Virus record (IMG/VR): IMGVR_UViG_3300045988_159685
Reading direction: 5' to 3' (one strand)
From: a virus
Length of the DNA: 64,000 nucleotides
The notes under the pieces are model-generated. The model was given only the letters and a program-made list of their open reading frames with translations, was not told the origin of the DNA and ran no database searches. Positions within the stretch are counted from its first letter, which is position 1. Each line of letters starts with the position of its first letter. Shown one piece after another: positions 28,274 through 62,942 of this stretch. Made by a program: the position numbers and the translations under genes.

Positions 28274-28406
28274 TATCGTTCTCTTCCTTTCGTTTTAGTT
28301 TCCATAAGGGGTGCAAAATTTCTTTTTGCACAAAATAAAAAAGCGACGCAAACCACGTTAATTCACGGTTTACATCGCTATTTTGTTATGTTTGTTGTGT
28401 GACATT

Positions 28407-29414: not shown

Positions 29415-29489
29415 ACATAACACCCCTTTACACTCTCATTTATTATATCATATATCTTATACGCTGTCAACTTTACAATTGTCCATCGT

Positions 29490-31477: not shown

Positions 31478-31640
31478 CATCCTCCCCCGACCTATAGAGG
31501 TCGGAGCTTCCTCCTGCAAGATTTGCAGGCAGTCGGTTCTCGTTCGAGCAGTCCATTGACTACAGCATAAGCGAGCTATCCCCGTGTGTCCCACGGTTCT
31601 ATTGGATTTGGCTATGCGAAAGCTATTCGCATGCCTTCAT
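31478..31640 (-). ncRNA. Putative TnpB omega (re)RNA scaffold at the element's right end
   Basis: The GC-rich, hairpin-dense segment overlapping and following the tnpB 3' end (CCGTGGGACACACGG, CTGCAAATCTTGCAG, CCGACCTCTATAGGTCGG on the minus strand) sits where omega RNAs are encoded. Confidence 0.55.
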
Positions 31641-32751: not shown

Positions 32752-32872
32752 TCTTTGCCACCTCCTTATTATGATTATATCATTTTGAACTCTTTTTAGC
32801 AAACTTTAGAGACGCAATCCATCCCTCACCTATAGAGGTGAGGGTATTCTTGCTTCGGTTTGATAAAAGTTA

Positions 32873-34345: not shown

Positions 34346-35146
34346 TTATCTTGCCCTATTAATTCTCTGTCGGGCTACTGTAATAATATAATCAAAAGAC
34401 GGCATTGGTTTGAGTTTAAACTCATTTTTCTTATGAAGATTATCTATCTTCGACTTGATTTCTGCCTTGGGCAGAACCCCATATCGTATATATTTATCCA
34501 AAGTATCGTAACTAAATCCAAGGTTATCTTCATCCGTCTTCCCACACAAACCATCAGAAGGAGTTTTCTCAATAAATTTCTCAGGTAAACCAAGAAAGCG
34601 ACCTATTGATTTTACTTCTTGCACTGTAAACTTCGCAAGCGGTGCCATGTCCCCTGCTCCATCGCCATACCTTGTGGCATAACCAATATAATCCTCAGAA
34701 TAATTGCAAGTATTAATAACACGCCCACCGACTGTCTGCGATACAGCATAAAGTGTAGCCATACGCAAACGTGCTGGCAGATTTATTGTTGTTTGTTCAC
34801 TAAGGGTAGTCTCAAGGGCGTCACTGATTTTTGCTATAGCAGTATCATAAACTGATTCAATATTTATTGTTACATTATTAATACCGAGAAACTCGCAGAG
34901 TTCATTAGCATAGTTGATATCTGCCTGTTCTCCGTTTGGCATAAGCACGCCGAACACTCTTTCTTTACCAAGTGCTTTAACGCAGAGTGCTGCGACAACA
35001 GATGAGTCTTTTCCGCCAGATATTCCAATAACGGCTTTGCAACCATTTCCATTGTTCTCAAACCAATCTCTAATCCATTCAACACACATCTCTGCTGCCA
35101 CGTAAGAATTAAAATCCAGATTATAATTATCGTCATTATAACTCAT
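34346..35146 (-). CDS. nadE: NAD+ synthetase (NadE, ATP-pyrophosphatase family)
   Basis: PP-loop GISGGKDSSVVAALC; size and layout fit ammonia-dependent NadE. Confidence 0.85.
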   Translation of the reverse strand: MSYNDDNYNLDFNSYVAAEMCVEWIRDWFENNGNGCKAVIGISGGKDSSVVAALCVKALGKERVFGVLMPNGEQADINYANELCEFLGINNVTINIESVYDTAIAKISDALETTLSEQTTINLPARLRMATLYAVSQTVGGRVINTCNYSEDYIGYATRYGDGAGDMAPLAKFTVQEVKSIGRFLGLPEKFIEKTPSDGLCGKTDEDNLGFSYDTLDKYIRYGVLPKAEIKSKIDNLHKKNEFKLKPMPSFDYIITVARQRINRAR

Positions 35147-35164
35147 AAAAACACCTCGCTTAGA

Positions 35165-36643
35165 TTAGAAATTATTATTGTGGAGTCTGTTGCGGATATT
35201 AGCAAGTGAGTCATCAATAAGCAATTCGCTATTTCTGAATATTGCCTTTAACTCTTGTTTACTATTACAGGAAACTTCTTTCCAAGTATATTCGTCCTTA
35301 TAACAGAGCTCGCCGTTATCGTCTTTATAAACAAGACAACAACCCTTTTGTGATTTCTTAAATCCACCCTCTTTTGGATTTTTGAATATAGGATATGGCT
35401 TATGATCGATTTCACAGTATGTTGCCTTAATACAAGAACTAAAGGTATCTCTTGTAAATGGTTTAAGTATTCCATCTTCTTCTACGCACTGAAATGAAAA
35501 TGAGCCAACGCCAAGTGCAACATTGCTAGCCGCAAAGCCGTTATCCTTTAAAATTTCATATATCCTTTCACAACGCTGGATAGTAATTGAGTCACCATAA
35601 ATAGCCTTTACATGAGGGTCAAGAACTTTGTATCCCTTACTATTAATTGTGCCACCAAATTCATCCCAAAGTTTAAACACTGTTTTAGTTACAACTTCTA
35701 TGCAATCACCTGAATCGCCACGCATAAGCATGCAACCATTGTGCGCCATAATCTCTGGTTTTATTTGTGGCAAAACGTTATCAATGACATTCCAATAATC
35801 ATATGAATCAAGGACAGCAGAAAAACTTGTATCAGGATAAATCTCGGTCAATAATCTTTTAAGCAACGTAACTTCGTCACCATCAACCGCATAATTTGAA
35901 CACATAACTGCATGTTCGGTAGAGGGCGAACCAAATGCTACAGGCTCTTTGGTACAATCGCAATTATAAAGCTTTTCAAGATATGGTATGACAGGGACTG
36001 TTGCTGTATTTACAAAACTCAGACACCAACCAGCCGCCGCTTTAATAGCAGAATCCGTACATTCTTCACCTCTAAAGTCAAAAGAACCTAGAGCTTTGTT
36101 TCGTGACACACTATCATCACAGGTTTCATCGTAGAACTTATTTACGATATCACGATAAGTTGCACCCACCGTTGCGGCAAGCATTGGATGCCAAGCCTCG
36201 GCTGATATAAGCGATTCAAGAGCCTGCGGTAGCCATGCAAAATCGTCATGCGTATTAGTTATGCAAAACATCGGAACGTGCATTGGAACCTTTGTTCCTT
36301 CTGGTAATGCCCATATCTCAATTGGGAGATAGCCAAGGGCATGCAGGTCTTTTATTTTCTGCAAGCCATATACGCCCTTACCAAGTGAAGCATCCATAAT
36401 ACGCTCATATTCCGAAATGACTTCGTCTATAGGGCGTTCAAAAAATCTTTCATTAAAGTAATCTATCAAATAGGTTTTTACAAAGCCCTGAAGTCCGAAC
36501 ATCACGACTTTGTTCCACATCCTTACACGACTCATTCGTGGCGTAAAATATGAAACGGATTTTGTTATCTTAGTCGGCAACATCTCAGCATGAACCGCTT
36601 TATAAAAATCAATAAGTAGCATTGGGTTTATATTATATAACAT
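35165..36643 (-). CDS. Nicotinamide/nicotinate phosphoribosyltransferase-family protein (NAMPT/NadV-like; possible Namat)
   Basis: N-terminal NPMLLIDFYKAVHAEM. 492 aa, typical of the NAMPT/NAPRT fold family. Adjacent to a Prs-like gene. Confidence 0.8.
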   Translation of the reverse strand: MLYNINPMLLIDFYKAVHAEMLPTKITKSVSYFTPRMSRVRMWNKVVMFGLQGFVKTYLIDYFNERFFERPIDEVISEYERIMDASLGKGVYGLQKIKDLHALGYLPIEIWALPEGTKVPMHVPMFCITNTHDDFAWLPQALESLISAEAWHPMLAATVGATYRDIVNKFYDETCDDSVSRNKALGSFDFRGEECTDSAIKAAAGWCLSFVNTATVPVIPYLEKLYNCDCTKEPVAFGSPSTEHAVMCSNYAVDGDEVTLLKRLLTEIYPDTSFSAVLDSYDYWNVIDNVLPQIKPEIMAHNGCMLMRGDSGDCIEVVTKTVFKLWDEFGGTINSKGYKVLDPHVKAIYGDSITIQRCERIYEILKDNGFAASNVALGVGSFSFQCVEEDGILKPFTRDTFSSCIKATYCEIDHKPYPIFKNPKEGGFKKSQKGCCLVYKDDNGELCYKDEYTWKEVSCNSKQELKAIFRNSELLIDDSLANIRNRLHNNNF

Positions 36644-36660
36644 AACTTGTCACCTCCAAA

Positions 36661-37512
36661 TTAAAACATATCGAAAATCTCAATTTTGTCTGCGTTTACT
36701 TCAAGTCCATCGGCACCAATCTTCTTGCGGTAAATACTATTGGTAGAGAAAACCTTTTTGATAAGCCCGCTCTTAATCATGTCGCCGTCGTGTACCGAAT
36801 TTTCAAGATGTGAAACGTATAAATAAATGTCGCCAACACCATACTCTTTTAGAGCTTTTGCACTATAATAGAAAGTTCCGCCCCTAGAACAAATATCATC
36901 AACAATTAATACGTTTCTACCTTTTAATGTGTCTGTATTACCCATGATGCTTAATCCATTAATGGTTCCAGTTTTCCAATCCCTATTTTTCATACCGAAT
37001 ACATAAGGCACTTCAAGAATACTAGATATGAATGAATAACGTTTCATTGCGCCTTCGTCTGGGAAAAATAAAATAAGATCTTTCCTAGAAATCTTTTCGT
37101 CAATAATATTATCCCTCAAAATGCCAGCCGGTGAAGAATCTCTGATATTGTTTATTAGAGCCGCTCCAACGTTTGAATGAATGTCAAGTGTAAATACTTT
37201 TCTAAACTCCATATTATTGATTAGATTTGCAAATGTTTTGAGCGTAAACATTTCAAACGCTTTTTGTGTACGATCCATGCGAGCATTAGGAACATATGGC
37301 ATATTCAGATTAATGTTACAAAAGCCCTTGCTCTTTAACCAATCGACACAGCAAGCTAACTGAAATATCTCCGAATCATTGTCGTAAAGCCAAGTTATGT
37401 CTATAGGTGCTGAAACCCCATATCCAATGAGTTCCGCAATGCTATAGGTCAGTTTACACGTTCCATCAGGAAATTTAATAATATTAATTGGTTTAGAATC
37501 AATAGAAATCAT
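36661..37512 (-). CDS. Ribose-phosphate pyrophosphokinase-like protein (Prs-like; possible Adps)
   Basis: FTLDIHSNVGA (DxHS-type) and the PRPP-loop NVLIVDDICSRGGTF. Confidence 0.75.
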   Translation of the reverse strand: MISIDSKPINIIKFPDGTCKLTYSIAELIGYGVSAPIDITWLYDNDSEIFQLACCVDWLKSKGFCNINLNMPYVPNARMDRTQKAFEMFTLKTFANLINNMEFRKVFTLDIHSNVGAALINNIRDSSPAGILRDNIIDEKISRKDLILFFPDEGAMKRYSFISSILEVPYVFGMKNRDWKTGTINGLSIMGNTDTLKGRNVLIVDDICSRGGTFYYSAKALKEYGVGDIYLYVSHLENSVHDGDMIKSGLIKKVFSTNSIYRKKIGADGLEVNADKIEIFDMF

Positions 37513-48085: not shown

Positions 48086-48160
48086 TGGTGACTCGTGCAG
48101 GAATTGCACCTACGATTCCATCCTGAGAAGATAGCGTCTTAACTACTTGACCAACGAGCC
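48086..48160 (-). tRNA. tRNA-Glu-like, anticodon CUC (copy A; atypical T-loop UGCAAUU)
   Basis: Minus strand: GGCTCGT TG GTC AAGTAGTTAA GAC G CTATC TTCTCAG GATGG AATC GTAGG TGCAATT CCTGC ACGAGTC A CCA. Same architecture as Firmicutes tRNA-Glu (3-bp D stem). Confidence 0.7.
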
Positions 48161-48243
48161 ATAAGCCCATAAGGGCTTTTTAATACTATGGGATTATTGG
48201 AGGTGAAGAACCATAGTATGTATCAGGAATTACCCTCGCGCTG

Positions 48244-48319
48244 TGGCTGGAGTGGCTGGACTCGAACCAGCGGAATGACGGAGTCAAAGTCCGTTGCCTT
48301 ACCTCTTGGCTACACTCCA
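48244..48319 (-). tRNA. tRNA-Gln (UUG)
   Basis: TGGAGTG TA GCC AAGAGGTAA GGC A ACGGA CTTTGAC TCCGT .. GCTGG TTCGAGT CCAGC CACTCCA G CCA. Close to Bacillus tRNA-Gln. Confidence 0.85.
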
Positions 48320-48345
48320 ATATAGCCCGTAAAAGCGGGCATTTT

Positions 48346-48618
48346 TTACAACTTTTTACCATCAAGGGTTTCGAACATATATTCCGTCCAAGCCCAACAC
48401 GTGATTTCATTCAACGTATATTCGCCTGTATCTCCATATCCTCTATCCTGAATCTCCGTTATACTGTGAATTTCTCCACAATATATATACATTGATGGGT
48501 TAAAACTTAAATATGAATTTTTGGGGCGTAATGGTTCATCTTCTTGATTGTTGTAACTATATTCGCAAAGCAGGTCTTTTTTACGCCTTATTCTGACTTC
48601 ATTGCCGATTTTTAGCAT
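48346..48618 (-). CDS. GDKVRIRRxKDLxCE family paralogue
   Basis: MLKIGNEVRIRRKKDLLCEY...EYMFETLDGKKL. ATG at 48618 follows GGAGGTG. Confidence 0.6.
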   Translation of the reverse strand: MLKIGNEVRIRRKKDLLCEYSYNNQEDEPLRPKNSYLSFNPSMYIYCGEIHSITEIQDRGYGDTGEYTLNEITCWAWTEYMFETLDGKKL

Positions 48619-49150
48619 TATGCACACCTCCAATTTTGTATGGAATCTGAGTTACTCCAAGTTTTTTTGCGGCAATGTATCTGGCATAGCCGTCTTTCAA
48701 AATTTTGTTGCCCTTAGCATCAAGCTTTATAGTTATGGGGTTATCGAAAATTCCATAATATTTATAGAAACAGATAGCCCTGTCCACCTTTTCTTTCTTT
48801 GGCGGATGATTCATAAAGTCTCTGGGTATGTACACTTTATCTACATCTATGAGCTTTTTGAAGTTGCTCATAAAAGCGGGGCGACTAATGTTTACAACTA
48901 TCGCATTTATAGTTGCTACGCCATCACGCTTGGAGATTTCGTAATCTCTTCGACCTGTAATCAAAGAATATGTATCACGGGAATTTCGCCGCACAATTAC
49001 AACGAGGTTGTCTTTTGTGCCGAGTTTTTCAGTGTCGATACTCTTCTTGTGTACACTATCTGTCAGCATGATGTTCCTAACTGGTATAGGAATCGCCTGC
49101 GCCGCCATTCTTGACCTGAAATTTTTTATATTGTTAAAACAGTACGCCAT
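48599..49150 (-). CDS. ParB/Sulfiredoxin-like nuclease-domain protein
   Basis: C-terminal KILKDGYARYIAAKKLGVTQIPYKI (DGxxR-type ParB N-domain motif). An N-terminal segment YSLITGRRDYEISKRDGVATINAIVV looks like a second copy. Confidence 0.55.
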   Translation of the reverse strand: MAYCFNNIKNFRSRMAAQAIPIPVRNIMLTDSVHKKSIDTEKLGTKDNLVVIVRRNSRDTYSLITGRRDYEISKRDGVATINAIVVNISRPAFMSNFKKLIDVDKVYIPRDFMNHPPKKEKVDRAICFYKYYGIFDNPITIKLDAKGNKILKDGYARYIAAKKLGVTQIPYKIGGVHNAKNRQ

Positions 49151-49179
49151 AATTTCTACCTCCTATTTTTTATAATGGC

Positions 49180-49255
49180 TGGTGTGCCATTCGGGATTTG
49201 AACCCGAGACCTTTCGATTAAAAGTCGAATGCTCTACCAATTGAGCTAATGGCAC
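49180..49255 (-). tRNA. tRNA-Lys (UUU), copy 1
   Basis: GTGCCAT TA GCTC AATTGGTA GAGC A TTCGA CTTTTAA TCGAA AGGTC TCGGG TTCAAAT CCCGA ATGGCAC A CCA. Confidence 0.88.
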
Positions 49256-49615
49256 ATAGACCGCCGTGGCGGTCAGCATTGTAACCCATGGTTACACAGA
49301 TTACAATTTAATTACAAAGTGGTGACATAATTCAATCGACCGTGTTACTTAAATGTAACTCGCAAGCTTTTTAGCTTGCATTTGAATAAAAAAAATAACG
49401 ACGGATTAACCAAAGTTGACCCGTCGTTAAATATATAAAATGGACACTTTTCAGCCTTGTGGATAACCTACGGTCAAGTTATGACGCACCTTAACCAAAC
49501 TCAAGGGTTTTGTAAAATCTTAATTGTTGTGCTTTAAGATTTAAGCTTTAGACGATTATAAGCTTTGAACTTTCGTAATTAAATTTTCAGCTTTATGCCT
49601 TAAGCTTTATCTTAT

Positions 49616-49657
49616 TACTCGTACAGGAATTGAACCTGTAATGCAACCAGTCGAGCA
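49616..49657 (-). other. tRNA-derived acceptor/T-arm minihelix-like fragment (no D or anticodon arm, no CCA)
   Basis: Minus strand: TGCTCG-ACTGGTTGCATT-ACAGG TTCAATT CCTGT-A-CGAGTA. The 3' half resembles the tRNA-Glu-like copies. Confidence 0.4.
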
Positions 49658-49819
49658 ACAAAACATTCCCACAAAAAAGGAATATCATATATCTTCGTAT
49701 AGACTACGATAGCTATTACTTATATTTGAGGCCAGATTTTTATTATTTTACTTTGTGAATATAGCCTAAAACACAAAGGTCATAAAATTAAAGGTTTTCA
49801 AAAAGCACCCATTTTTTGC

Positions 49820-50461
49820 TTAGTACGAAATTTCGATTTCGGTTATAGCGTTCGATACGCTGATAGCCGAGTCAAAATCAATCTTAAACTTGTCTATACG
49901 ATCGACAAGGTCAGAAATGATTTCGGCAGTGTCAAAACCCTCGATAATTTCAAAAGTGTTCGCCTTTATGAAATTGGTTTTCGCCTCCTCTATTTCCTTT
50001 GTAACAGCTTTACCGTCTTTTGAACCAAACATTCCAAGTACATACTCATCGGCACGCCCCTGTAATGTTTCGCCGTTCTCATAATTACATCTGTCCTGTG
50101 CAGCTTTAAGCTGTTTAGACATATGCTTCAAAAGATCTTCCTCAAATTCAATGCCGTGATTCTTATACTCTATAGCCTCGGCAATAGTCAGTTTCATACC
50201 CTGTATTGTGACTTCGGTCTCGGCATTTGAAAGCGTAACGGCACGCTTAATTGCCTTACGCCTTTTTATAAGGTCGGCTATTTTGTCATAGCTCGCCTTG
50301 AAGCCATTCTTAGCTTCTTCAATAGAGACGCCATTTATCTTTGTGTTGCTATGTTTGTTCTCAACCACAAATTTTGCATCTTTGATAAGGGCGGGTATCC
50401 TCTTATCGAGAATCTTAAGCTCACAAAGTGCCTGATGAATCGTCATTTTTTCGTTAGTCAT
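49820..50461 (-). CDS. Hypothetical protein (213 aa, helical)
   Basis: Clean ORF between tRNA-like elements. Confidence 0.55.
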   Translation of the reverse strand: MTNEKMTIHQALCELKILDKRIPALIKDAKFVVENKHSNTKINGVSIEEAKNGFKASYDKIADLIKRRKAIKRAVTLSNAETEVTIQGMKLTIAEAIEYKNHGIEFEEDLLKHMSKQLKAAQDRCNYENGETLQGRADEYVLGMFGSKDGKAVTKEIEEAKTNFIKANTFEIIEGFDTAEIISDLVDRIDKFKIDFDSAISVSNAITEIEISY

Positions 50462-50515
50462 TTCAAAAACTCCTTTGAATTTTAAAATTTACAGACCTGA
50501 TTATGCCTGTATTGA

Positions 50516-50575
50516 TGGTGGCTCACACAGGATTTACACCTGTACTCTCACTGGGGATAAGAGTCTATTTGAGCC
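50516..50575 (-). pseudogene. 60-nt truncated tRNA-like element ending in CCA (D arm absent)
   Basis: GGCTCAA ATAG ACTCTTA TCCCCAG TGAGAGT ACAGG TGTAAAT CCTGT GTGAGCC A CCA. The acceptor pairs at 6 of 7 positions. The loop has C at position 33. Confidence 0.45.
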
Positions 50576-50628
50576 ATAGCGATGCAAAGCATCGCACTCA
50601 GAAAAAGAAGGGAATGCCCAAAACGGGC

Positions 50629-50704
50629 TGGTGACTCACGCAGGATTTGAACCATGCAATTCCGCCCTGAGAAGGCGGCGTCTTAACCGTTTGACCAGTG
50701 AGCC
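50629..50704 (-). tRNA. tRNA-Glu-like, anticodon CUC (copy B; one unpaired base in the T stem)
   Basis: GGCTCAC TG GTC AAACGGTTAA GAC G CCGCC TTCTCAG GGCGG AATT GCA(T)GG TTCAAAT CCTGC GTGAGTC A CCA. Confidence 0.6.
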
Positions 50705-50728
50705 ATAAGGCGGAGAACTCCGCCTATA

Positions 50729-51673
50729 TTACTTTTCTTTAAAGGTTGGCGAACAGCTCTCAAAGAATTCTTTTACGTTGACATTGTATTTCTCAAGAAT
50801 CGCAACGATAACTTTTTGTACCTTGTCCCATTCGTCATCTTTGATATACTGAATATACGGTGTCTTGCGATTGCCACGCTTTTTGAGGTCAATCCCGTAG
50901 CGATAACTAAGCTGCTTATATAGCATACTGAAAGCCACGCCGAAACTGATATGCAAAGTCGAAGCAAACTTACGCATAACTCTGTTGAACATTTTGCGGT
51001 CTGAAATATGTAAGACCTCGGCTGTTAAAAGCTTGTTTGACGTTTCAATTCTGTCGATATGACGCCGCTGAAACGCCGTGTAAGCCTGGGCGGCTGTCGC
51101 AAATTCCATGATATCACCCGTGGCAAAAGCCTTGCCGATTGCCGCTTGGAGCTTTTCTTCGTCGTCGATATCTTGCGTGAGAAGTTCGGGCTTTTCCTCG
51201 GCGGTGTGTTCGACAATGTTTAGGAGCTGTGTCCTGACCTCTTGGGCTATCTTGCTATCACGAAGAAGCATGCCTATTCTGAGGATGGCACGCTTTGAGA
51301 AACACTTGATGCCTCGGTTTGGGATTTCAAGGTGGGTATTATCGTCGATTTGGATAACAAGTTTGCCGTTTTGTTGCTCAAAATTCTTAAAGGTACAACT
51401 TGTACCTTTAAGAATTTCTTTAAAGATTGTAGGCGTTTTAGTTGCAACGCCATCACCCTCAATCTCAGTGCGGTTTCGCTGACAACAACGCTTTATAGTA
51501 TCAATATCAACCTCATAATAATCCGCCACCTGCCTAATAGTCATACAGTTCATCTCAGGTATCAAAAGCAGCTTCTTAACCTTATCAAGAACCTCAGTTC
51601 TGGCAATAAGCTCGTTTCTGAGGTCATGGTTGTCTACCATGCTTTCGCTCGTGATGATTTTACTTTCTGGCAT
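50729..51673 (-). CDS. HTH DNA-binding regulatory protein (phage antirepressor/Rha-like layout)
   Basis: N-terminal MTIRQVADYYEVDIDTIKRCCQRNRTEI HTH. The C-terminal helical domain resembles phage regulatory/antirepressor C-domains. Its own palindromic motif recurs upstream. Confidence 0.5.
   Translation of the reverse strand: MPESKIITSESMVDNHDLRNELIARTEVLDKVKKLLLIPEMNCMTIRQVADYYEVDIDTIKRCCQRNRTEIEGDGVATKTPTIFKEILKGTSCTFKNFEQQNGKLVIQIDDNTHLEIPNRGIKCFSKRAILRIGMLLRDSKIAQEVRTQLLNIVEHTAEEKPELLTQDIDDEEKLQAAIGKAFATGDIMEFATAAQAYTAFQRRHIDRIETSNKLLTAEVLHISDRKMFNRVMRKFASTLHISFGVAFSMLYKQLSYRYGIDLKKRGNRKTPYIQYIKDDEWDKVQKVIVAILEKYNVNVKEFFESCSPTFKEK
51381..51417. promoter_or_regulatory. 37-bp perfect palindrome (operator-like O1) inside the HTH gene
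   Basis: AAATTCTTAAAGGTACAA-C-TTGTACCTTTAAGAATTT. Confidence 0.7.
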
Positions 51674-51729
51674 AATTTCACCTCCTCTTGTAAAACAAAT
51701 TGAACATCTTGCTTAGTTAGTAACCTAAA

Positions 51730-51760
51730 TTCTTAACGGAACAAGTTGTTCCTTTAAGAA
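51730..51760. promoter_or_regulatory. Operator-like palindrome O2 upstream of the HTH gene
   Basis: TTCTTAACGGAACA-AGT-TGTTCCTTTAAGAA, one mismatch from perfect symmetry and the same consensus as O1. Confidence 0.65.
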
Positions 51761-51775
51761 ATATCCATCTTTAAT

Positions 51776-51798
51776 GGGATAAGTTGTTCCTTTAAAAG
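51776..51798. promoter_or_regulatory. Degenerate operator-like site O3 (good right half only)
   Basis: GGGATA-AGT-TGTTCCTTTAAAAG. Confidence 0.4.
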
Positions 51799-51842
51799 CA
51801 CTTGAATAGAGTTTAGACTTTTTTGCTATAATGCCATTTGAA

Positions 51843-51867
51843 CTAACGGAACATCTTGTTCCTTTAG
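51843..51867. promoter_or_regulatory. Operator-like palindrome O4
   Basis: CTAACGGAACA-TCT-TGTTCCTTTAG. Confidence 0.6.
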
Positions 51868-52074
51868 TAATTTTTAAAGATATTAAACTTACCTCTGCCT
51901 AACATTTAAGACTTATAATAACCGCAATCACCGTTATAATCAGATTAAGCAGTGCGCCGATCCACAGTGGTGATACCACCCAAAGCCAACTCCAGCATAT
52001 AACTTTAGTCAGTTTCAGTATGATAAATACGATAGTAAGCAGTCCGCAAAAACCAATTCCGCCGCTCTTCATAA

Positions 52075-52308
52075 TTATTCTCCCTCCCTTACAATATGAA
52101 ATTTATCCACGCCGTAAATAACGCCAAGTGAGCGCCCATTGTCAAAATTGCAATGAATCGTACCAGCGTCATCGACATGATCAACCGTTCCAAGCGTATT
52201 CGGCTCAACTGGGTATGGATCATCAACCATTTTCTCAAGGCATATTCTTGTACCCTCGGGGAAAACTCTTTTGAGCCAAGATATCCTCTTGTCATTGTAT
52301 AAACTCAT
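52075..52308 (-). CDS. DUF4314-like protein
   Basis: FPEGTRICLEKMVDDPYPVEPNTLGTVDHVDDAGTIHCNFDNGRSLGV matches the remembered DUF4314 pattern (G..v.l..M.Dp.p...G..GtV..vDd.GtihV.wDnG..L). Confidence 0.55.
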   Translation of the reverse strand: MSLYNDKRISWLKRVFPEGTRICLEKMVDDPYPVEPNTLGTVDHVDDAGTIHCNFDNGRSLGVIYGVDKFHIVREGE

Positions 52309-52646
52309 ACCTTGCCTCTTTCAAACTCAATAACACCGCCATCGGCATCAACGACAACTGGGCGAATTGATAGGATATTTCTTGTGAATAAAAACGCACA
52401 GGCTAATGGCACGGCAATAACCGCACTCTCGGGCATAGCTATAGCCATAACGCCCATAGCAAAGCCGAGAACTTTCTGCATAATCCACAACACTTTGGCT
52501 GCTTTTCTTTCAAGTCTGCGGCTTTTATAGCTTTCTATGCGCTTTTTAAGCTCTCTTTCTTCTTTGTCACGTTCTTCTGCGTGTTTCATAGATCTGATTA
52601 ACTTTGTCAGGTCGTATGTATTATGTACGTTTTCAAAAGCGTCCAT
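52305..52646 (-). CDS. Hypothetical membrane protein
   Basis: Charged helical N-terminus, then two TM helices. Confidence 0.5.
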   Translation of the reverse strand: MDAFENVHNTYDLTKLIRSMKHAEERDKEERELKKRIESYKSRRLERKAAKVLWIMQKVLGFAMGVMAIAMPESAVIAVPLACAFLFTRNILSIRPVVVDADGGVIEFERGKV

Positions 52647-52719
52647 AAAAACACCTCCATTTTAAAATAATAATAATGATTTTCTGATTACGCCTGAAAA
52701 TCACCATAAAATCTGGCGT

Positions 52720-52795
52720 TGGTGCGACTTATGGGGCTTGAACCCATGACCTCCGCATTAAAAGTGCGTTGCTCTACTAACTGAGCTAAAGCCGC
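52720..52795 (-). tRNA. tRNA-Lys (UUU), copy 2 (sequence-divergent from copy 1)
   Basis: GCGGCTT TA GCTC AGTTAGTA GAGC A ACGCA CTTTTAA TGCGG AGGTC ATGGG TTCAAGC CCCAT AAGTCGC A CCA. Confidence 0.85.
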
Positions 52796-52888
52796 AAGCG
52801 CAGGCATCACACTACATTCCCATATGGTGGGATAAGCACTGTACCTGCTATGCCAATTTTCTTTTTGTGTAGCATTGGCAAACTACAC

Positions 52889-52975
52889 TGGTGCCGCTGA
52901 CGAGACTTGAACTCGTAAGGATTTTACTCCGAGGGTTTTTAAGACCCTTGTGTATGCCTATTCCACCACAGCGGC
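52889..52975 (-). tRNA. tRNA-Leu (UAA), type II with long variable arm
   Basis: GCCGCTG TG GTGGAATAGGCATACAC A AGGGT CTTAAAA ACCCT (long variable arm) ACGAG TTCAAGT CTCGT CAGCGGC A CCA. Confidence 0.85.
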
Positions 52976-53085
52976 TTGTCTTGCCCACAACCCACAGAAG
53001 GCAAGTAATGTACGGCTCATCCGTACTTCCCTACGTATTCAGCGACTGATGCCACCGATGCGCGTCTAAGGACTGCGACGTCCTT

Positions 53086-53160
53086 TGGTGACTCGTGCAG
53101 GATTCAAACCTACGACTCCGCTCTGAGAAAGCGGTATCTTAATCACTTGACCAACGAGCC
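53086..53160 (-). tRNA. tRNA-Glu-like, anticodon CUC (copy C; T-loop UUUGAAU)
   Basis: GGCTCGT TG GTC AAGTGATTAA GAT A CCGCT TTCTCAG AGCGG AGTC GTAGG TTTGAAT CCTGC ACGAGTC A CCA. Confidence 0.7.
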
Positions 53161-56603: not shown

Positions 56604-56632
56604 TTGACATTTAGCCAAAAATGGTGTATAAT
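56604..56632 (+). promoter_or_regulatory. Consensus sigma-A-type promoter for the small recombinase gene
   Basis: TTGACA - 17 nt - TATAAT, about 50 nt upstream of the AAAGGAG RBS and the ATG at 56685. Confidence 0.75.
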
Positions 56633-56684: not shown

Positions 56685-57473
56685 ATGAGACATTACAAAA
56701 TCAAGCACGCCCAGCAGGTATTCAGTGGTTCGACCGCCCCAAAACTTAAGTGCAACGTTATCGACATTGGCGACGCTGTAAAACCAAAGCGACCCGAAAT
56801 TGAGAAGCGTCCACGCAACAATTCACCGTACACCTCACATGGCAAACCCAAGGCAACCCCTGGCGATCCAATTCGAGACATGGCGGATATTCAAAAGGCA
56901 AAAGAGTTCTTGCTCAACAACGGTAAGACTAGACGCATCAGACTTCGTAACTACATGTTCTTCACCCTTGGCATTTCAACGGGACTCCGTGGTGGCGACT
57001 TAGTTAAAATCAAGATTGGCGATGTGATTACTGAGGGCGGTAGATTTAAAAGCTATATCAGCTTGTTCGAGGAAAAGACCTCTAAACACAACAATCCAAA
57101 GCTTAATTCATCATGCCGTGAAGCAATCAAGACATATCTCGACTACATCGGCGACTACTCCCTTGAAGACTATCTGTTCAAATCCGAGAAAGGCGGTTGT
57201 CTTGACCAATCACAAATCTATAGAATCATTCATTCGCTTCAAACCGACCTTGGGCTACCATACCACTTGAGCGCACATAGCCTCAGAAAGACCTTTGGCT
57301 ACTGGACAATAAAGATGCACCCCGACGATTCAAGAGCTCTTGTGACACTCCAGAGAATGTTAAATCACGATTCACCCGAGACTACACTGATTTACTGCGG
57401 AATAACTCAAGACGACAAAGACGCATTCTACGATGACATGGATACACTGTTCGATGAGGCTACAACCATATAA
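56685..57473 (+). CDS. Small tyrosine recombinase (XerC/D- or invertase-sized, 262 aa)
   Basis: GLRGGDLVKIKIGDV (Arg I), HSLRKTFGYW (HxxR), LNHDSPETTLIYCG (H...Y). Confidence 0.85.
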   Translation: MRHYKIKHAQQVFSGSTAPKLKCNVIDIGDAVKPKRPEIEKRPRNNSPYTSHGKPKATPGDPIRDMADIQKAKEFLLNNGKTRRIRLRNYMFFTLGISTGLRGGDLVKIKIGDVITEGGRFKSYISLFEEKTSKHNNPKLNSSCREAIKTYLDYIGDYSLEDYLFKSEKGGCLDQSQIYRIIHSLQTDLGLPYHLSAHSLRKTFGYWTIKMHPDDSRALVTLQRMLNHDSPETTLIYCGITQDDKDAFYDDMDTLFDEATTI

Positions 57474-57833
57474 CTTCTCGCTACAGGTCTAAGACGTTTA
57501 TACGAAAGCCGACATAAGCCGGCATAAGCAACTTGACAAATCACAGTACGCTGTGCATAAAATGGGCACAAATCTCAAGCCTTGCCAAATCAAGGTTCAA
57601 TGCAGTTCTAGCCGACAGTAATTAAGCAAAGAAAATCCTGCCGCATTGAATTGGCAACAAACTTGAGTGCGTTTGTCCGAAGTGACAGGTCACTGGAGAT
57701 TAAACTCTGTCACTGGTCTTGTGAATGCAGGTACATCCATAGGTGAAAATTTGCAAGCCCCGATTTATTTGGCATAAGAAAAAAAGAAAAGAAAGAAGCA
57801 AAGAAAAGAAATAAAAGAATTATTATATATTAT

Positions 57834-57853
57834 AATATATATATATATATATA
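57834..57853. repeat. (AT)10 microsatellite within a ~50-bp pure A/T block
   Basis: Read directly. Confidence 0.9.
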
Positions 57854-57858
57854 TTAAT

Positions 57859-57890
57859 TCTTAAATCACTAGATTTATCTAGTGATTTAA
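57859..57890. repeat. Perfect inverted repeat IR-A (15-bp arms, 2-nt spacer)
   Basis: CTTAAATCACTAGAT-TT-ATCTAGTGATTTAAG. Confidence 0.9.
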
Positions 57891-57891
57891 G

Positions 57892-57951
57892 AAGAGACAA
57901 TAATCTAGTATTATAACTATTCTTGAATAATAAATATAAGATTATTGTCTC
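57892..57951. repeat. Perfect inverted repeat IR-B (14-bp arms, 32-nt AT-rich loop)
   Basis: AGAGACAATAATCT ... AGATTATTGTCTCT. Confidence 0.9.
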
Positions 57952-58044
57952 TAAAAGAAAGAATAAATAAGAAAGAAAAGAATTGAATCAATGCCAATAT
58001 CTTTCAAACCCATTTGACGGTTAAGACCAATAAAGGAGAAAGAT

Positions 58045-60768
58045 ATGGCATTAAACAAATTATACTATGTGTACGGACTTGATACTGCGTGCCTTTATAC
58101 ACCAGAGGAAAGTGCTATTGAACAAAAAATTATCAAGGCACGTTGCCTTCGAGCTACGCTCAAAGACAGAATTGCCAAACAAAAGATAACCCCTTGTCTT
58201 TGTAAAGGTAAAAAAACTATAGCAAACAAAGACAACAAAGCCCCATACGTTGGAAAACATCAGAAGCGTCTGCGTTTTCTCAACGATTACATAGCCAGTC
58301 ATAAAGCATTACTTAAGCAGGAGCTTGCCAAAAATGTATCACTCACACGAACCGTGATACCTGACAAGCTCAATATACGTCGCCAGATTTCAATATTTGG
58401 CTCTTCCCTTACAAGATATTTCAACCTAAAGGAAAGAGAGCTTAATGAAGAAATCGTGATTGTAAAAGTTTACTTCTTCGATGTCGCCAAGAGCATTGTG
58501 AAGAACGGCTTTTACATGAATGGTCACAAATACGTTTTCTTCTCAAGTAGTGCGGGGCAAATCAGAACCAAAAAGCTCGTGGCCGTTCGTGAAGATTTAC
58601 TCAACAAGTATTGGAACGCATTGACGGCAGGCTTGACAATTGAAAAGATTAATGAGCAAGGCGGCATGAATGTAAATAAATTTCTTGCCTACCTTGCTCT
58701 TTGTAATTCAGCTACTGATTTATGGTGTGACTTCAACATTGACGAGTGTATTGTAGTTGACGACTTTGAAACGCTTGTGCATGGTACGGTTGACTTTATA
58801 GACGATAAGACCTATAGGATTGAAAGACAAGAAATGAATATACCGATCACGCACACCGATGGCTGTGGAATGATACTTCCAGAACTGAGTACAAAAAATT
58901 TCATGACAAGATTGCCATGGGTCAAAGGTCTGCTAGCAAGTTTTGACTTTGTGAAGTTTATCAAGGATAATAATTGCGACCCCGTGATTACTGACGTCTA
59001 CGGCGATAAGCATAATATCCTTGAGGAAAATATCAAAATCATATTTACCAAGAGTCAGTTCAAAATGTGGAAATATTATTCAAACTGGGGTGAATATAAA
59101 AACAACTTCAAGAAATATGGAAGCACCGCAGGCAAGTGTAACATAGAAGAAGGATATATCCCATATGCAACGATCAACTACCAAATGATACAGACACTAA
59201 TTGATACCACTGACAATGAGATAGCCGCACTTGCTCGTAAGAGCATGAACGATATTCGCAATCTCGCAACCGATAAAGCAACAATGCTCAAGGTTTTCGG
59301 AGCTACAAGCTACAACAAAAATATGAACGGCTTTCAAAAATGTCTTAAGTTATATCCCGAGCTTTTATCAGACCCATATTCTCGTGCCGCCCTTAAAGAC
59401 ATCAAACATAGCCTTGAGACAGATCAGTGGGCGGCCAAATTCAAAACAAGCGGTAAATACACGTTTGTTGTTCCAGACCTTTATGCGTTCTGTGAATATT
59501 TATTCTTACATATATCAAATCCTAAAGGACTTTTAAGCAACGGTGAAGTAAGTTGCAAACTGTTCAAAGATAATATTGAGCTTGATTGTTTACGTTCGCC
59601 GCACCTCTACATCGAACATGCCATAAGAACAAATCGTCATGTTGACAGTTGGTTTAATACAGATGCAATCTATACAAGTTGTGCCGACTGTATATCGAAA
59701 GTTTTGCAGTTCGACAACGACGGTGATAAACTATTGGTGATTCCAGATGAAACACTAATAAACCTTGCTAAACGAAACTTGCAAAAGTATGACATAGTAC
59801 CGCTCTTCTATAACATGGCTAAGGCGGGGGCAAAAGAACTTACTCCCGATAGCCTGTATGATGGATTAATATGTGCCTACACTGGTGGCAATATTGGCGA
59901 AATAAGCAACGCCATTACCAAGGTTTGGAATAGCGGAGTAATCGACCAAGAAAAAATCAATGTTGTTAAATGGCTTTGTATGGAAAATAACTTCGTCATA
60001 GACTACGCCAAGACCTTGTATAAACCCGTTCGTCCTGATTGGGTAAACGAAATTATTTCTAAGCACGTCAAGAGCAGAGTTCCACATTTCTTTCAATATG
60101 CTAAAGGCAAAGAAACCAATCAAGTAGAAGAAAGAGGTTTAAACACGGTTGACAGAATTAAGTCGTTGACCCCTATACAAAAGCTTAACTTTAATTTTAA
60201 GAACGACAATGTTGGAAAGTTTGATTATAGATTTCTGCTAAAAAACAAAGAAATTGAAGTCGATGAGAATGTGCTTCAACGCTTTAGGGATATATCAAGC
60301 AATCTAAGGTTTTGTGACTCAGATGGAACGGCACTTAACTACCAAGCCGTATACGATCAAGCGAAAGAAGAAATGCTTATGCTCGGTCATAACATTGACG
60401 ATGTTGTAGATATGCTTGTAGAGGATTTATTTCACAGTAGACGTGTTGAAAAGAAAAAAGCATTTTGGGAAATGTTTGGCGAAGTTGTGTACGAACATTT
60501 GTCGAACAATTTATCACAAAATTATATCCAGTGTGCTCACTGTCAGAAAAGATTTTATCGTGAAAACTCGAAACAAATTTACTGCAACAAATGTCAAAAC
60601 AAGAAGTCCATCAAAGCAAATACCAAGATTCTTCAATGTGCAGGTTGCGGCAAAACCATAACAGTAAGTACAAGATGTCATCGTGAAGCCTACTGCCCTG
60701 AGTGTAAAATTCATGCAAGAAATGCGGCAAGACTGAGGGCGTATTATAAAAATAAGCATCTTGTGTAG
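58045..60768 (+). CDS. YonO-like single-subunit two-barrel RNA polymerase candidate (RdRP-related family) with C-terminal zinc ribbons
   Basis: 907 aa. YVFFSSSAGQIRTKKL (RdRP/YonO-type SxxQxR block), LRSPHLYIEH, QFDNDGDKLLVIPD (DxDGD metal loop). C-terminal CAHC..CNKC..CAGC..CPEC. An HU gene lies nearby, as with yonN-yonO in SPbeta. Confidence 0.55.
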   Translation: MALNKLYYVYGLDTACLYTPEESAIEQKIIKARCLRATLKDRIAKQKITPCLCKGKKTIANKDNKAPYVGKHQKRLRFLNDYIASHKALLKQELAKNVSLTRTVIPDKLNIRRQISIFGSSLTRYFNLKERELNEEIVIVKVYFFDVAKSIVKNGFYMNGHKYVFFSSSAGQIRTKKLVAVREDLLNKYWNALTAGLTIEKINEQGGMNVNKFLAYLALCNSATDLWCDFNIDECIVVDDFETLVHGTVDFIDDKTYRIERQEMNIPITHTDGCGMILPELSTKNFMTRLPWVKGLLASFDFVKFIKDNNCDPVITDVYGDKHNILEENIKIIFTKSQFKMWKYYSNWGEYKNNFKKYGSTAGKCNIEEGYIPYATINYQMIQTLIDTTDNEIAALARKSMNDIRNLATDKATMLKVFGATSYNKNMNGFQKCLKLYPELLSDPYSRAALKDIKHSLETDQWAAKFKTSGKYTFVVPDLYAFCEYLFLHISNPKGLLSNGEVSCKLFKDNIELDCLRSPHLYIEHAIRTNRHVDSWFNTDAIYTSCADCISKVLQFDNDGDKLLVIPDETLINLAKRNLQKYDIVPLFYNMAKAGAKELTPDSLYDGLICAYTGGNIGEISNAITKVWNSGVIDQEKINVVKWLCMENNFVIDYAKTLYKPVRPDWVNEIISKHVKSRVPHFFQYAKGKETNQVEERGLNTVDRIKSLTPIQKLNFNFKNDNVGKFDYRFLLKNKEIEVDENVLQRFRDISSNLRFCDSDGTALNYQAVYDQAKEEMLMLGHNIDDVVDMLVEDLFHSRRVEKKKAFWEMFGEVVYEHLSNNLSQNYIQCAHCQKRFYRENSKQIYCNKCQNKKSIKANTKILQCAGCGKTITVSTRCHREAYCPECKIHARNAARLRAYYKNKHLV

Positions 60769-60786
60769 TACAACAAAACTAAAACG

Positions 60787-60832
60787 AAATCCCCGTAAAC
60801 GACGTATCTACGTTGTTTGCGGGATTTTTTTG
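60787..60832 (+). terminator. Rho-independent terminator after the polymerase-like gene
   Basis: Long imperfect hairpin AAATCCCCGTAAACGACGTA / TACGTTGTTTGCGGGATTT followed by a T-run. Confidence 0.75.
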
Positions 60833-60983
60833 TATATAAATTTCAAAAAATTACACCCCTTATGGAGAGGAAAAGTCAATATACAAAGAACGGGCTGTCC
60901 TACGCTAGCGTTATAATCTTATCAAGTGCGCAGTTATAAGTTAGGATATATCTCCAAAAATATAGAACAAAAGGATTAGATAA

Positions 60984-61157
60984 ATGATTGAAATTAACAA
61001 GTGGGAAGAAAAACAATTAAGAAAGACCATACCGAACCTGTGCGTTGCAAGAACTGGTAAAAGTAAAAAAGCAAAGCGTGGTAAAATATATGCTGAGCCT
61101 ACACGCAAGGTGTTATCTACGCTAAAACGGATTCGTGAAGTTGACTACATCAACTAA
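60984..61157 (+). CDS. Hypothetical 57-aa basic protein (below cutoff)
   Basis: MIEINKWEEKQLRKTIPNLCVARTGKSKKAKRGK.. with a weak AAGGA RBS. Confidence 0.4.
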   Translation: MIEINKWEEKQLRKTIPNLCVARTGKSKKAKRGKIYAEPTRKVLSTLKRIREVDYIN

Positions 61158-61174: not shown

Positions 61175-62362
61175 ATGAGTTATAAATATCAACGTTATGA
61201 AAATGAAAGCCCCGAAGAATTGATATTCAGGATCTGTAGTCACAAAAATGAAATTGGTACATGGAGCGACGTAGGTAGGGTGTTGAACGAATTACTTGGT
61301 GAAAACTATACCGAGTCTGCTTACCGCAAAAAATATCAGAGCTTTGAAAAAATGTTCTCAGGCAATCAGAAACTGTTTTCTGATAATGAAGAAGTCTTAT
61401 CGGAAATATCAGAGCAAAGACGTGAGCTTGAAAAAGAAAAGATTAAATTCCGTGATGAAAGAAACGCTTGGAACAAACAGAACCGCATTGCGGCAAGAAC
61501 TGAACAAAAATTAGATTATCTTGAAGAACAGCTTGTCTCCATGGGTAAAGTGAATTTTAGCAATCATACCACACCTGTAACAGTTAGAGGTAATTCAGAT
61601 TTGCTTATTACAATTAGTGATATTCACTATGGACTTAATTACAACAATTACTTTGGGACGTATAATTCTGACATATGCAAAAACTATCTTGCTAAATATC
61701 TCGAAAAGATTATAAGCATTGGATCACGTCATAAGGCAAGAAATATTCACGTCGTAATGTTAGGCGATATAATTTCTGGCTCAATACATAAGTCGATTCA
61801 AATTGCTAACCGCGAAAATGTCATAGAGCAGATTAAAGGCGTGTCTGAGTTATTGAGTTCATTCGTATATGAACTGTCGAATCATTTTGCAAAAGTCACA
61901 GTCACAAGCGTATCAGGAAATCATTCGCGTCTTGACAAAAAAGATGAAGCACTTCATGACGAAAGACTCGACGACATCGTTTCGTTCATAATGGAAAAGT
62001 CATTAAGCAATGTTGACAATATCAGTTTTCAAACTTACTACAATTTTGATACAAGCATAGCAAGTATTAAGATATGCGGCAAATTGTATTTCCTTGTACA
62101 CGGTGACTATGATACACCAAATGAGACAGGCGTAATGCGCCTATGTAGTATGGTTGGAAACATCCCGTATGCAATAATCATGGGTCATAGACATTCGGCG
62201 GCGTACAATGAAATCAACGGGATTGTTATTGTGCAAAGCGGTTGTTTGTGCGGAAGTGGCGATGACTATACGATACAAAAGCGTCTTAGTGGTTTGCCGA
62301 GTCAGACAATTTGTGTATGCTCCGAACATGGCATAGATTGTATGTACCCAGTGAAATTTTAG
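61175..62362 (+). CDS. Metallophosphoesterase with N-terminal coiled-coil region
   Basis: ISDIHYG, MLGDIISG, GNHSR, VHGD, GHRH motif series. Confidence 0.7.
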   Translation: MSYKYQRYENESPEELIFRICSHKNEIGTWSDVGRVLNELLGENYTESAYRKKYQSFEKMFSGNQKLFSDNEEVLSEISEQRRELEKEKIKFRDERNAWNKQNRIAARTEQKLDYLEEQLVSMGKVNFSNHTTPVTVRGNSDLLITISDIHYGLNYNNYFGTYNSDICKNYLAKYLEKIISIGSRHKARNIHVVMLGDIISGSIHKSIQIANRENVIEQIKGVSELLSSFVYELSNHFAKVTVTSVSGNHSRLDKKDEALHDERLDDIVSFIMEKSLSNVDNISFQTYYNFDTSIASIKICGKLYFLVHGDYDTPNETGVMRLCSMVGNIPYAIIMGHRHSAAYNEINGIVIVQSGCLCGSGDDYTIQKRLSGLPSQTICVCSEHGIDCMYPVKF

Positions 62363-62512
62363 CACACTCAATAATCTGTATGGGCAATCAAAAAAATAAA
62401 TATTCATTGAAGACTTATAATCTTCATGATTACACCAGGAACCCAACACGCCTCCTAGCAGTGCGTACCACGTTGGGTCTTTAAATTAATTTAGAATGTG
62501 AGGAAAAATAAA

Positions 62513-62791
62513 ATGGTAAAGAAAGATATTATAACAGCCGTATCAAAGAGAACTGGCTTTACAAGAGAAAATTCTGAGGCTGCTATTAATGCAGCAATTG
62601 CGGCAATCGTTGACGCTATCAAATCAAATGAGGAAGTAAGAATTATGGAGCTTGGAAAACTTGAGCCAGTTGTTAGAGCGGCACGCAATAGACATAATCC
62701 AAAGACTGGTGAGAAGATATTTGCTCCAGCCTACAAGAGTTACAGATTCAAGATGAATTCTGTGCTCAAGGATTTTGTCAGAAACAACTAA
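62513..62791 (+). CDS. hup: HU/IHF-family DNA-binding protein
   Basis: MVKKDIITAVSKRTGFTRENSEAAINAAI..RNRHNPKTGEKIFAPAYKSYRFK (beta-arm RNPxTGE). Confidence 0.85.
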   Translation: MVKKDIITAVSKRTGFTRENSEAAINAAIAAIVDAIKSNEEVRIMELGKLEPVVRAARNRHNPKTGEKIFAPAYKSYRFKMNSVLKDFVRNN

Positions 62792-62866: not shown

Positions 62867-62942
62867 TGCGGAGTAGAGAAAAGGTATCTCGCTTGTTTCA
62901 TAGGCAAGAGATTATTGGTTCGAGTCCAATCTCACGCAACCA
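62867..62942 (+). tRNA. tRNA-Met(CAU)-like gene with a bulged acceptor stem (possible pseudogene or att-associated copy)
   Basis: TGCGGAG TA GAGA AAAGGTA TCTC G CTTGT TTCATAG GCAAG AGATT ATTGG TTCGAGT CCAAT CTC(A)CGCA A CCA. D, anticodon and T arms fold. The acceptor needs one bulged A. Confidence 0.45.

Follow-up and report, generated by a model that had tools for sequence, protein, structure and literature searches.

A predicted YonO-type single-chain RNA polymerase and a candidate late promoter in an SPbeta-like prophage of Ruminococcus bicirculans

The polymerase gene and its predicted product

The window analysed here, a 64,000-nucleotide (nt) stretch of DNA from the virus record IMGVR_UViG_3300045988_159685, carries on its plus strand a yonO-like gene (58045..60768) for a 907-residue single-chain two-barrel RNA polymerase, followed by a terminator, a conserved promoter-like element and the first genes of a late operon. 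The gene was assigned from an open reading frame (ORF) with an ATG start, from Pfam and PHROG matches, from homology to YonO of phage SPbeta, and from an AlphaFold2 model compared by Foldseek. Direct reading of the sequence revealed a ribosome-binding site, AAGGAG (58033..58038, +), 6 nt 5' of the ATG. An earlier sequence-only reading had described this 907-residue ORF with its three motif blocks and, at the C-terminus, four CxxC pairs, all of which are present exactly as described, and had proposed a YonO-like, two-barrel identity related to RNA-dependent RNA polymerases (RdRPs).

BLASTP comparison with SPbeta YonO revealed 44% identity over query residues 2-850 (94% of the length; 669 bits, E=0), with the stretches SSSAGQIRTKK, LRSPHL and QFDNDGDK conserved between the two proteins. 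Similarly, tblastn of deposited phages matched SPbeta yonO and all SPbeta-like relatives, at ~44% identity over 94% of the query, and more than 3,700 homologues were found in a large protein collection. The family PHROG 8308 matches the polymerase from end to end (E=1e-236), whereas the Pfam family RdRP (PF05183) matches it in three stretches with 49.9 bits against a gathering cut-off of 23.8 (E=2.7e-13). The sequence-only reading had named a primase-polymerase as the kind of unrelated family that profile searches might return instead. Neither a primase-polymerase nor any other unrelated polymerase family appeared among the Pfam, PHROG or PDB matches of the window protein, and this identity was rejected, as profile and fold searches give RdRP and two-barrel matches instead.

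The three motif blocks are distributed over the two putative barrels. Block 1 (YVFFSSSAGQIRTKKL, residues 163-178; 58531..58578, +), the signature of the N-terminal barrel, falls within the best Pfam RdRP stretch (residues 133-282) and has a core identical to that of SPbeta YonO. Block 2 (LRSPHLYIEH, residues 516-525; 59590..59619, +) contains the R-x-P motif, which is common to all two-barrel RNA polymerases and matches R446/P448 of Rpb1, among eight invariant residues (PMC2919709). Block 3 (QFDNDGDKLLVIPD, residues 555-568; 59707..59748, +) carries the putative catalytic triad D557/D559/D561 within QFDNDGDK, which is also found in SPbeta YonO. In an alignment of 54 relatives, 46-60% identical, the residues S169, G171, Q172, I173, R174, K176 and K177 of block 1 and R517, S518 and P519 of block 2 are invariant, as are D557, D559, G560 and D561 of block 3 and the four cysteines of the first zinc ribbon (54/54 each). 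As assigned from sequence, R517-S-P519 and the basic residues R174/K176/K177 in SSSAGQIRTKK match invariant positions of the two-barrel enzymes. Taken as sequence patterns, the three blocks and the CxxC pairs of the 907-residue protein lie far above chance expectation.

The AlphaFold2 model, built from the 54-sequence alignment, has a mean predicted local distance difference test (pLDDT) score of 89.7 and a predicted template-modelling (pTM) score of 0.83. It contains beta-rich regions at residues 133-300 and 470-566, and the only disordered part comprises residues 49-64. Structural similarity search using Foldseek against the PDB yielded eight significant matches, each of them to RDR2 or QDE-1 (E 9.5e-18 to 9.4e-11, TM-score ~0.4-0.5), with nothing other than these two at E<0.5. 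The chains of multi-subunit polymerases show no significant Foldseek similarity to the model (E above 2), and the PDB collection searched holds no structure of YonO. On this predicted structure, the single chain accommodates two double-psi beta-barrels, and the comparison with YonO- and QDE-1-type enzymes that had been suggested beforehand returned two-barrel enzymes only.

SPbeta YonO is a strict DNA-dependent RNA polymerase with a strong preference for DNA templates; the 3D>3N mutation abolishes its activity, and deletion of yonO silences 37 late genes (PMC5467207). Within the family, RNA synthesis on DNA that does not depend on the host RNA polymerase has been demonstrated for SPbeta YonO only. 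Homology, motifs and predicted fold are observed for the window protein itself, whereas DNA-dependent activity, a role in late-gene expression and an essential aspartate triad would carry over to it from these experiments on SPbeta YonO (PMC5467207). It might instead be a true RNA-dependent RNA polymerase that copies or amplifies RNA, such as phage antisense or regulatory RNAs, rather than transcribing DNA. Such an activity would suit the sole Pfam family matched, RdRP PF05183, the closest solved structures, which are the RNA-silencing enzymes RDR2 and QDE-1, and the RefSeq name 'RNA dependent RNA polymerase', which speaks against a DNA-dependent enzyme, although the name itself is derived from the Pfam family. 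However, SPbeta YonO is far closer to the window protein (44% identity versus 11-14% for RDR2 and QDE-1), strongly prefers DNA templates and drives late genes (PMC5467207). Moreover, the gene heads the late operon as it does in SPbeta, and it is followed by a terminator and a conserved DNA element, so that an RNA-copying enzyme appears very improbable. Because of the 44% identity to a DNA-dependent enzyme, the RefSeq name, inherited from PF05183, is probably wrong for this clade.

Every defining feature of the YonO family that we checked is found at this locus, namely the homology, the aspartate triad, the R-x-P motif, the basic residues, the predicted fold and the late-operon position. The identity proposed by the sequence-only reading is borne out by the 44% identity to YonO, the PF05183 match, fold matches confined to RDR2 and QDE-1, and the place in the operon. 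The best explanation of the whole, to which we assign a probability of roughly 80%, is that the gene is the orthologue of SPbeta YonO and encodes a single-chain, double-psi beta-barrel, Mg-dependent and DNA-dependent RNA polymerase, with the candidate element downstream as its late promoter.

The C-terminal tail is composed of two putative zinc ribbons and a basic helix. Ribbon 1 is formed by the pairs C830/C833 and C847/C850 (60532..60594, +); its cysteines are the invariant ones mentioned above, and SPbeta YonO has an equivalent at residues 799-819. Ribbon 2, formed by C865/C868 and C884/C887 (60637..60705, +), is found in 47-48 of the 54 aligned relatives but is absent from SPbeta YonO. The basic segment at residues 885-907 (60697..60765, +) is modelled by AlphaFold2 as a helix spanning residues 885-906, and in every relative, as in SPbeta YonO, the last ribbon gives way to a Lys/Arg-rich end. 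Among the 120 best matches, 97 have four CxxC pairs, nine have two and six have six; the remaining eight have zero, one, three or five, several of them being truncated sequences. The relatives accordingly bear one, two or three ribbons, with any extra ribbon placed after ribbon 1 and ahead of the terminal basic helix.

Against Pfam, the profile of the tail brought no family to its cut-off, including named zinc-ribbon families such as Rpb12/RpoP, S27e and DZR. Homology of the tail to Rpb12/RpoP was considered and not adopted, the matches being weak and driven by the cysteine pattern. No mention of zinc or of ribbons in YonO was found in the searchable literature. The sequence-only reading had regarded the extension as an undescribed variant; it does seem to have gone unremarked in that literature, but the claim is overstated, since SPbeta YonO has the first ribbon and 97/120 close relatives have two. 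The tail thus appears to be a family-wide, modular and hitherto unremarked appendage that is not peculiar to the window protein.

Two side observations concern the family at large. Some relatives of ~970 residues (P0072, P0080 and P0081) bear the domain PF18551 besides RdRP, indicating the accretion of an N-terminal domain in part of the family. In addition, yonO was matched in two pieces in several Bacillus SPbeta-like phages (SPR, phi3T, SPbetaL3-L7, Goe11, Goe14 and BUCT083; records H2-H8, H24 and H25), with an ORF inserted between the two pieces that is annotated as a GIY-YIG nuclease in one record. A mobile intron or homing element appears to split yonO in these phages; the window copy is uninterrupted.

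Genome context, host and upstream region

The gene order 3' of the polymerase is that of the SPbeta late operon, with the polymerase at its head. In the window, the first late-operon ORF, of 57 residues, occupies the position of YonK (60984..61157, +); it has no Pfam match itself, while a small ORF is conserved here in relatives and some copies match Pfam YonK. It is followed by a YonJ-like metallophosphoesterase gene (61175..62362, +; Pfam Metallophos, with YonJ_N recorded for the identical gene on the contig L002) and by a gene for an HU-like DNA-binding protein, the counterpart of SPbeta YonN (62498..62791, +; Pfam Bac_DNA_binding, E=1.6e-22). The latter lies 1.73 kb downstream of the polymerase, in agreement with the HU gene noted earlier at 1.7 kb. 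The identical contig L002 reaches past the window and continues this order, with the 57-residue ORF, YonJ_N/metallophosphatase, HU, an integrase-fold protein and YonG, then the terminase, a 491-residue protein, YonD and YonB. The order of small ORF, YonJ, HU and YonG is mostly kept in most of nine relatives whose polymerases are 55-60% identical, and an HU gene near yonO is conserved in most of the fetched relatives. This synteny, like the terminator described below, is observed directly.

At the left end of the window lies an integrase gene (260-1465), which on a 365-kb human-gut metagenome contig abuts the host genes GlgB, GalT and YfhO. Exact-sequence look-ups showed that the flanking host proteins are those of Ruminococcus, and the polymerase itself belongs to a 90% cluster of 901 members together with WP_186489133.1 and WP_270760223.1, both named 'RNA dependent RNA polymerase [Ruminococcus bicirculans]' in RefSeq. 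On the basis of these exact-sequence clusters of the flanking genes and of the polymerase, the host is Ruminococcus bicirculans, and the window belongs to an SPbeta-like temperate phage, present as a prophage, of this gut anaerobe. IMG/VR holds six copies of the polymerase at 99-100% identity, and the closest relative among species-representative genomes is only 52% identical. Near-identity matches of the window to deposited phages are limited to tRNA-sized stretches, so the window does not represent a deposited phage.

The location within a prophage inside a bacterial chromosome could also point to a decaying or domesticated remnant whose product no longer polymerises, and a possible host function for YonO-like genes on chromosomes was raised by Forrest et al. 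(PMC5467207). We consider this extremely improbable for the present gene. The ORF is intact and of full length, every invariant catalytic residue is kept, and the 901 near-identical members of its cluster come from many samples. Moreover, the flanking phage modules look complete, comprising the integrase, replication genes, terminase and structural genes.

The replication module is likewise SPbeta-like, with genes for PolIII alpha (18414-21431), DnaG (22330-23334) and DnaB (23346-24608), all three of which the sequence-only reading had listed. It had also listed an intron-containing ribonucleotide reductase. The anaerobic reductase gene nrdD is indeed interrupted, as judged from its Pfam profile: three minus-strand pieces at 2838-3806, 4109-4633 and 5494-6150 correspond to profile positions 264-560, 105-256 and 2-104, respectively, and further ORFs lie in the gaps between them, one of them an HNH_3 ORF predicted on a sister contig. 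The intron part of the claim did not find support, as no Rfam intron model matched these gaps at gathering thresholds or at E≤1, and the insertions are candidate introns only.

Upstream of the polymerase, a promoter scan revealed a sigma-A/sigma-70 consensus promoter (TTGACA, 17 nt, TATAAT; 56604..56632, +) with 12/12 matches. Between this promoter and the polymerase gene lies an integrase-fold gene of 262 codons (56685-57473; Pfam Phage_integrase), and the terminator scan found no plus-strand terminator between the promoter and position 58045. The promoter is likely the point at which host RNA polymerase enters for expression of the polymerase gene. Short integrase-fold genes of this kind also lie 5' of yonO in the relatives L078 and L158, and SPbeta-type repressors (MrpR/YopR and SroF) are known to have integrase folds. 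Within the 570-nt non-coding stretch that precedes the polymerase gene are a (TA)n tract and inverted repeats (57815-57952), among them a perfect 17-nt repeat (57858-57874 / 57877-57893) and a 20-nt repeat (57893-57912 / 57933-57952). They could serve as operators or in packaging; the pac site of SPbeta was proposed in the equivalent yonR-yonP region.

A few further genes accompany these modules. Seven tRNA genes at 48086-53160 (-) were found by both ARAGORN and Rfam (three Glu-CTC, two Lys-TTT, Gln-TTG and Leu-TAA), and an eighth, found by Rfam only (62868-62938, +), lies directly after the HU gene inside the late operon. A cluster at 34346-37512 (-) encodes an NAD synthase, a nicotinamide/nicotinate phosphoribosyltransferase and a PRPP-synthetase-like protein, and is reminiscent of the NAD-reconstitution pathways with which phages counter host defence. 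A TnpB / IS605 OrfB (Cas12f-like) gene at 31612-32802 (-) also lies within the prophage; the relative L076 has a related one near yonO (1782-2900).

A candidate promoter element downstream of the gene

The polymerase gene is closed by a strong intrinsic terminator with a 14-bp stem and a T-run (60792..60833, +), as found by the terminator scan. SPbeta has an annotated stem-loop at the corresponding position behind yonO, and a hairpin with a T-run can be seen 3' of the gene in most of the 10 loci of the clade, which comprises the window and nine relatives at 55-60% identity. Beyond it, a conserved ~20-nt promoter-like element, TACACCCCTTATGGAGAGGAA (60852..60872, +), forms a candidate late promoter. 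In this clade, the order 3' of the gene is hairpin and T-run, an A-rich stretch (TCAAAAAT), and the motif CC(C)TTAWTGGARAG. The motif sits within ~100 nt of the stop codon, though the hairpin and the A-rich stretch are not evident at every locus. The window element has the core CCTTATGGAGAGG and contains the candidate-promoter stretch CCCCTTATGGAGAGG. When a matrix was trained on the nine other clade loci only, the site at 60852-60872 ranked first among ~128,000 window positions, with 16.5 bits compared to 13.7 bits for the next. The conservation of the element and its placement are thus observed, and its function as the late promoter of YonO-type polymerases is what we infer from them.

A second copy of the element (28295..28315, -) lies 5' of the gene for the single-strand-annealing protein Sak (27626-28273, -), which heads the recombination and replication block. 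It contains the exact 13-mer CACCCCTTATGGA at 28301-28313, for which we estimate the chance of a second occurrence in 64 kb at ~1e-3. Its layout is the same as at the polymerase locus: a hairpin with a T-run, here after an MrpR-like gene (28407-29423), then the A-rich stretch, the element, a ribosome-binding site and an ORF, the element standing 20 nt before the ribosome-binding site of Sak. Given this copy, the polymerase may drive genes beyond the late operon if the element is indeed a promoter.

In the wider family, a related element with the consensus ~ATCGyCTTTAAGGGAGA is found 50-200 nt after the stop codon. Matrix scores were controlled with the reverse strand, coding DNA and shuffles. 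In ten split-half cross-validations, between 6 and 23 of the 35 held-out loci scored above the 95th percentile of the controls. A frozen matrix was then applied to 46 unseen, non-redundant IMG/VR loci, yielding a median of 10.0 bits compared to 3.8 in the controls (Mann-Whitney p=3e-14), with 20/46 loci above the 95th percentile of the controls versus 2.3 expected; in these loci the distance from the stop codon to the element is 60-150 nt. An unseeded search for enriched k-mers 3' of yonO had given A/T-rich low-complexity words only, no better than shuffles, and was replaced by the seeded matrix with controls.

In the 134-kb SPbeta genome, GATAATNGTCAT occurs in only two copies, and the late strand carries both. 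One of them (GATAATCGTCATAAGGGAGAC; GATAATCGTCAT at record 61244-61233; L001 8618-8637, record ~61221-61240) is found 115 nt past yonO, between yonO and the HU gene yonN. The other (GATAATAGTCATTTATGAGGG; GATAATAGTCAT at record 60454-60443) sits at the centre of the 60573-60331 amplicon, which is defined by the primers that Forrest et al. used in primer extension of a YonO-dependent start. A first candidate chosen by eye in SPbeta, GGTCAGAGAAAACTGTGCAAAATAAATGGCGAGAG (~L001 9860-9900), lies outside this amplicon and was dropped. A second, unreported YonO-dependent start may exist in SPbeta after yonO, and it would place yonN under the control of YonO. What YonO recognises, and whether it does so alone, was left open by Forrest et al. 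(PMC5467207), and our literature search found nothing on a YonO promoter or structure beyond that 2017 paper and comparative papers.

Several points weigh against reading the element as a promoter and the tail as its recognition module. The strongest SPbeta copy, after yonO and 5' of yonN, is not at the published start site, which is upstream of yonK, and the SPbeta link is drawn only from the primer positions, as the start (B. subtilis 168 coordinate 2225998) is not reliably convertible to record coordinates. In its purine half the element is similar to a Shine-Dalgarno sequence, so that the family matrix responds to strong ribosome-binding sites as well, its top match in SPbeta being the ribosome-binding site of yorL. 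Moreover, the family-wide matrix gives the window site 9.4 bits, level with ~17 background matches; we do not claim this score as support for that reason, and for the window site the clade-specific leave-out matrix alone is informative. In addition, the tail profile resembles generic zinc ribbons only, its best PDB profile matches being C2H2 arrays (2e-6), S27e (5e-4) and RpoP (6e-4).

These points, together with the partial dyad symmetry seen in several copies (for example CTCCCTTTAAGGGAG in locus L160), would suit a different reading, in which the polymerase is correctly assigned and the element is a regulator site (such as for an HU-like or integrase-fold protein), an RNA 5'-leader or processing signal, or a relic ribosome-binding site from a small ORF since lost, the tail being merely structural. 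We regard this as unlikely, though by no means negligible. No start codon is found 5-12 nt after the window copies or the SPbeta copies, as a ribosome-binding site would require, and the element is strand-specific, with reverse-strand controls at background. Furthermore, it stands between the terminator of the polymerase gene and the late operon in most of the 10 clade loci, the second window copy repeats the same order of terminator, element, ribosome-binding site and ORF, and an SPbeta copy is central in the amplicon of the mapped start. The preferred reading is still that of a late promoter.

The type of element differs with the number of ribbons. For one-ribbon proteins, 69 sites reach 9 bits or more, of which 52 are of the AAGGG type and none of the WTGGA type, whereas for two- and three-ribbon proteins the WTGGA type prevails (nine against three); these counts include near-duplicates, and the association is confounded by phylogeny, a further point against the recognition reading. 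The pairing is only a lead for a tail that reads the promoter. It is a rather doubtful proposal that the element is the promoter of the whole family, that the tail acts as a built-in, sigma-like specificity module, that the number of ribbons co-evolves with the promoter variant, and that the copy at 28295-28315 drives the Sak and replication operon, a wider role than in SPbeta, where only late genes are concerned. Equally tentatively, one ribbon would go with ...TAAGGGAGA, and two or three ribbons with ...TWTGGARAG.

Proposed mechanism and comparison with known polymerases

We propose that after induction, host RNA polymerase would transcribe the polymerase gene, probably from the promoter at 56604-56632, with the transcript ending at 60792-60833. 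The new polymerase would then start at the candidate element at 60852-60872, with initiation probably at its G-run, and would transcribe the late operon, including the YonK-like ORF, YonJ, HU, YonG, the terminase, the portal and the structural genes. Catalysis would be performed by the D557-x-D559-G-D561 loop of the C-terminal barrel, to which R174/K176/K177 of the N-terminal barrel would contribute, and the two Cys4 ribbons together with the basic helix would bind nucleic acid and help in promoter recognition.

As the enzyme class has been established since the work on YonO in 2017, and as RefSeq already carries an automatic annotation of the protein, the gene does not represent a new kind of system. 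The 901 members of its 90% cluster do show that a prevalent anaerobe of the human gut commonly harbours SPbeta-type phages equipped with a two-barrel RNA polymerase. The comparative analysis also provides a testable promoter candidate for the YonO family and, in the ribbon tail, a candidate recognition module. If true, a short, defined promoter for a compact, processive and pause-resistant single-chain polymerase would be of interest to synthetic biology.

Compared to SPbeta YonO, the window protein shares full-length homology (44%), the three blocks SSSAGQIRTKK, LRSPHL and QFDNDGDK, the first Cys4 ribbon and the basic C-terminus. The two genes are also alike in their setting: each follows a divergently oriented regulatory region, is closed by a terminator, has an HU gene adjoining and stands at the head of the late structural operon. 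However, the window protein possesses a second Cys4 ribbon (residues 865-887) and a disordered 25-residue insert (~residues 45-70), and its host is a strictly anaerobic gut member of the Clostridia, Ruminococcus bicirculans, rather than a Bacillus. In addition, the order YonK-like ORF, YonJ and HU in the window lacks the 1.7-kb non-coding spacer of SPbeta, the core of the element is CCTTATGGAGAGG in the window compared to GTCATAAGGGAGA in SPbeta, and the window has a second copy ahead of the Sak and replication genes.

Among solved structures, QDE-1 and RDR2 (PF05183) give the best matches and share the two-barrel core, the DxDGD loop, the R-x-P motif and the FSxSQ(L/I)R-type signature. They differ greatly in other respects, with only 11-14% identity, a function in copying RNA during silencing, no Cys4 tail in the matched region and no phage late operon. 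The multi-subunit RNA polymerases (beta/beta' and Rpb2/Rpb1) likewise have two barrels, the aspartate triad, the R-x-P motif and the basic residues (PMC2919709), whereas the window enzyme would be a single chain of ~105 kDa. YonO itself is devoid of the trigger loop and of most conserved multi-subunit domains, such as the flap and the clamp (Forrest et al., PMC5467207).

The T7-type polymerases resemble the window enzyme in being phage-encoded single chains that use a short, specific promoter, here a candidate one, to transcribe late genes. The T7 promoter, like the candidate described here, ends in a purine- or G-rich start region, ...TATAGGGAGA. Nevertheless, T7-type enzymes adopt a Pol I-like right-hand fold, compared to the two barrels predicted here, and any likeness in promoter style would be convergent.

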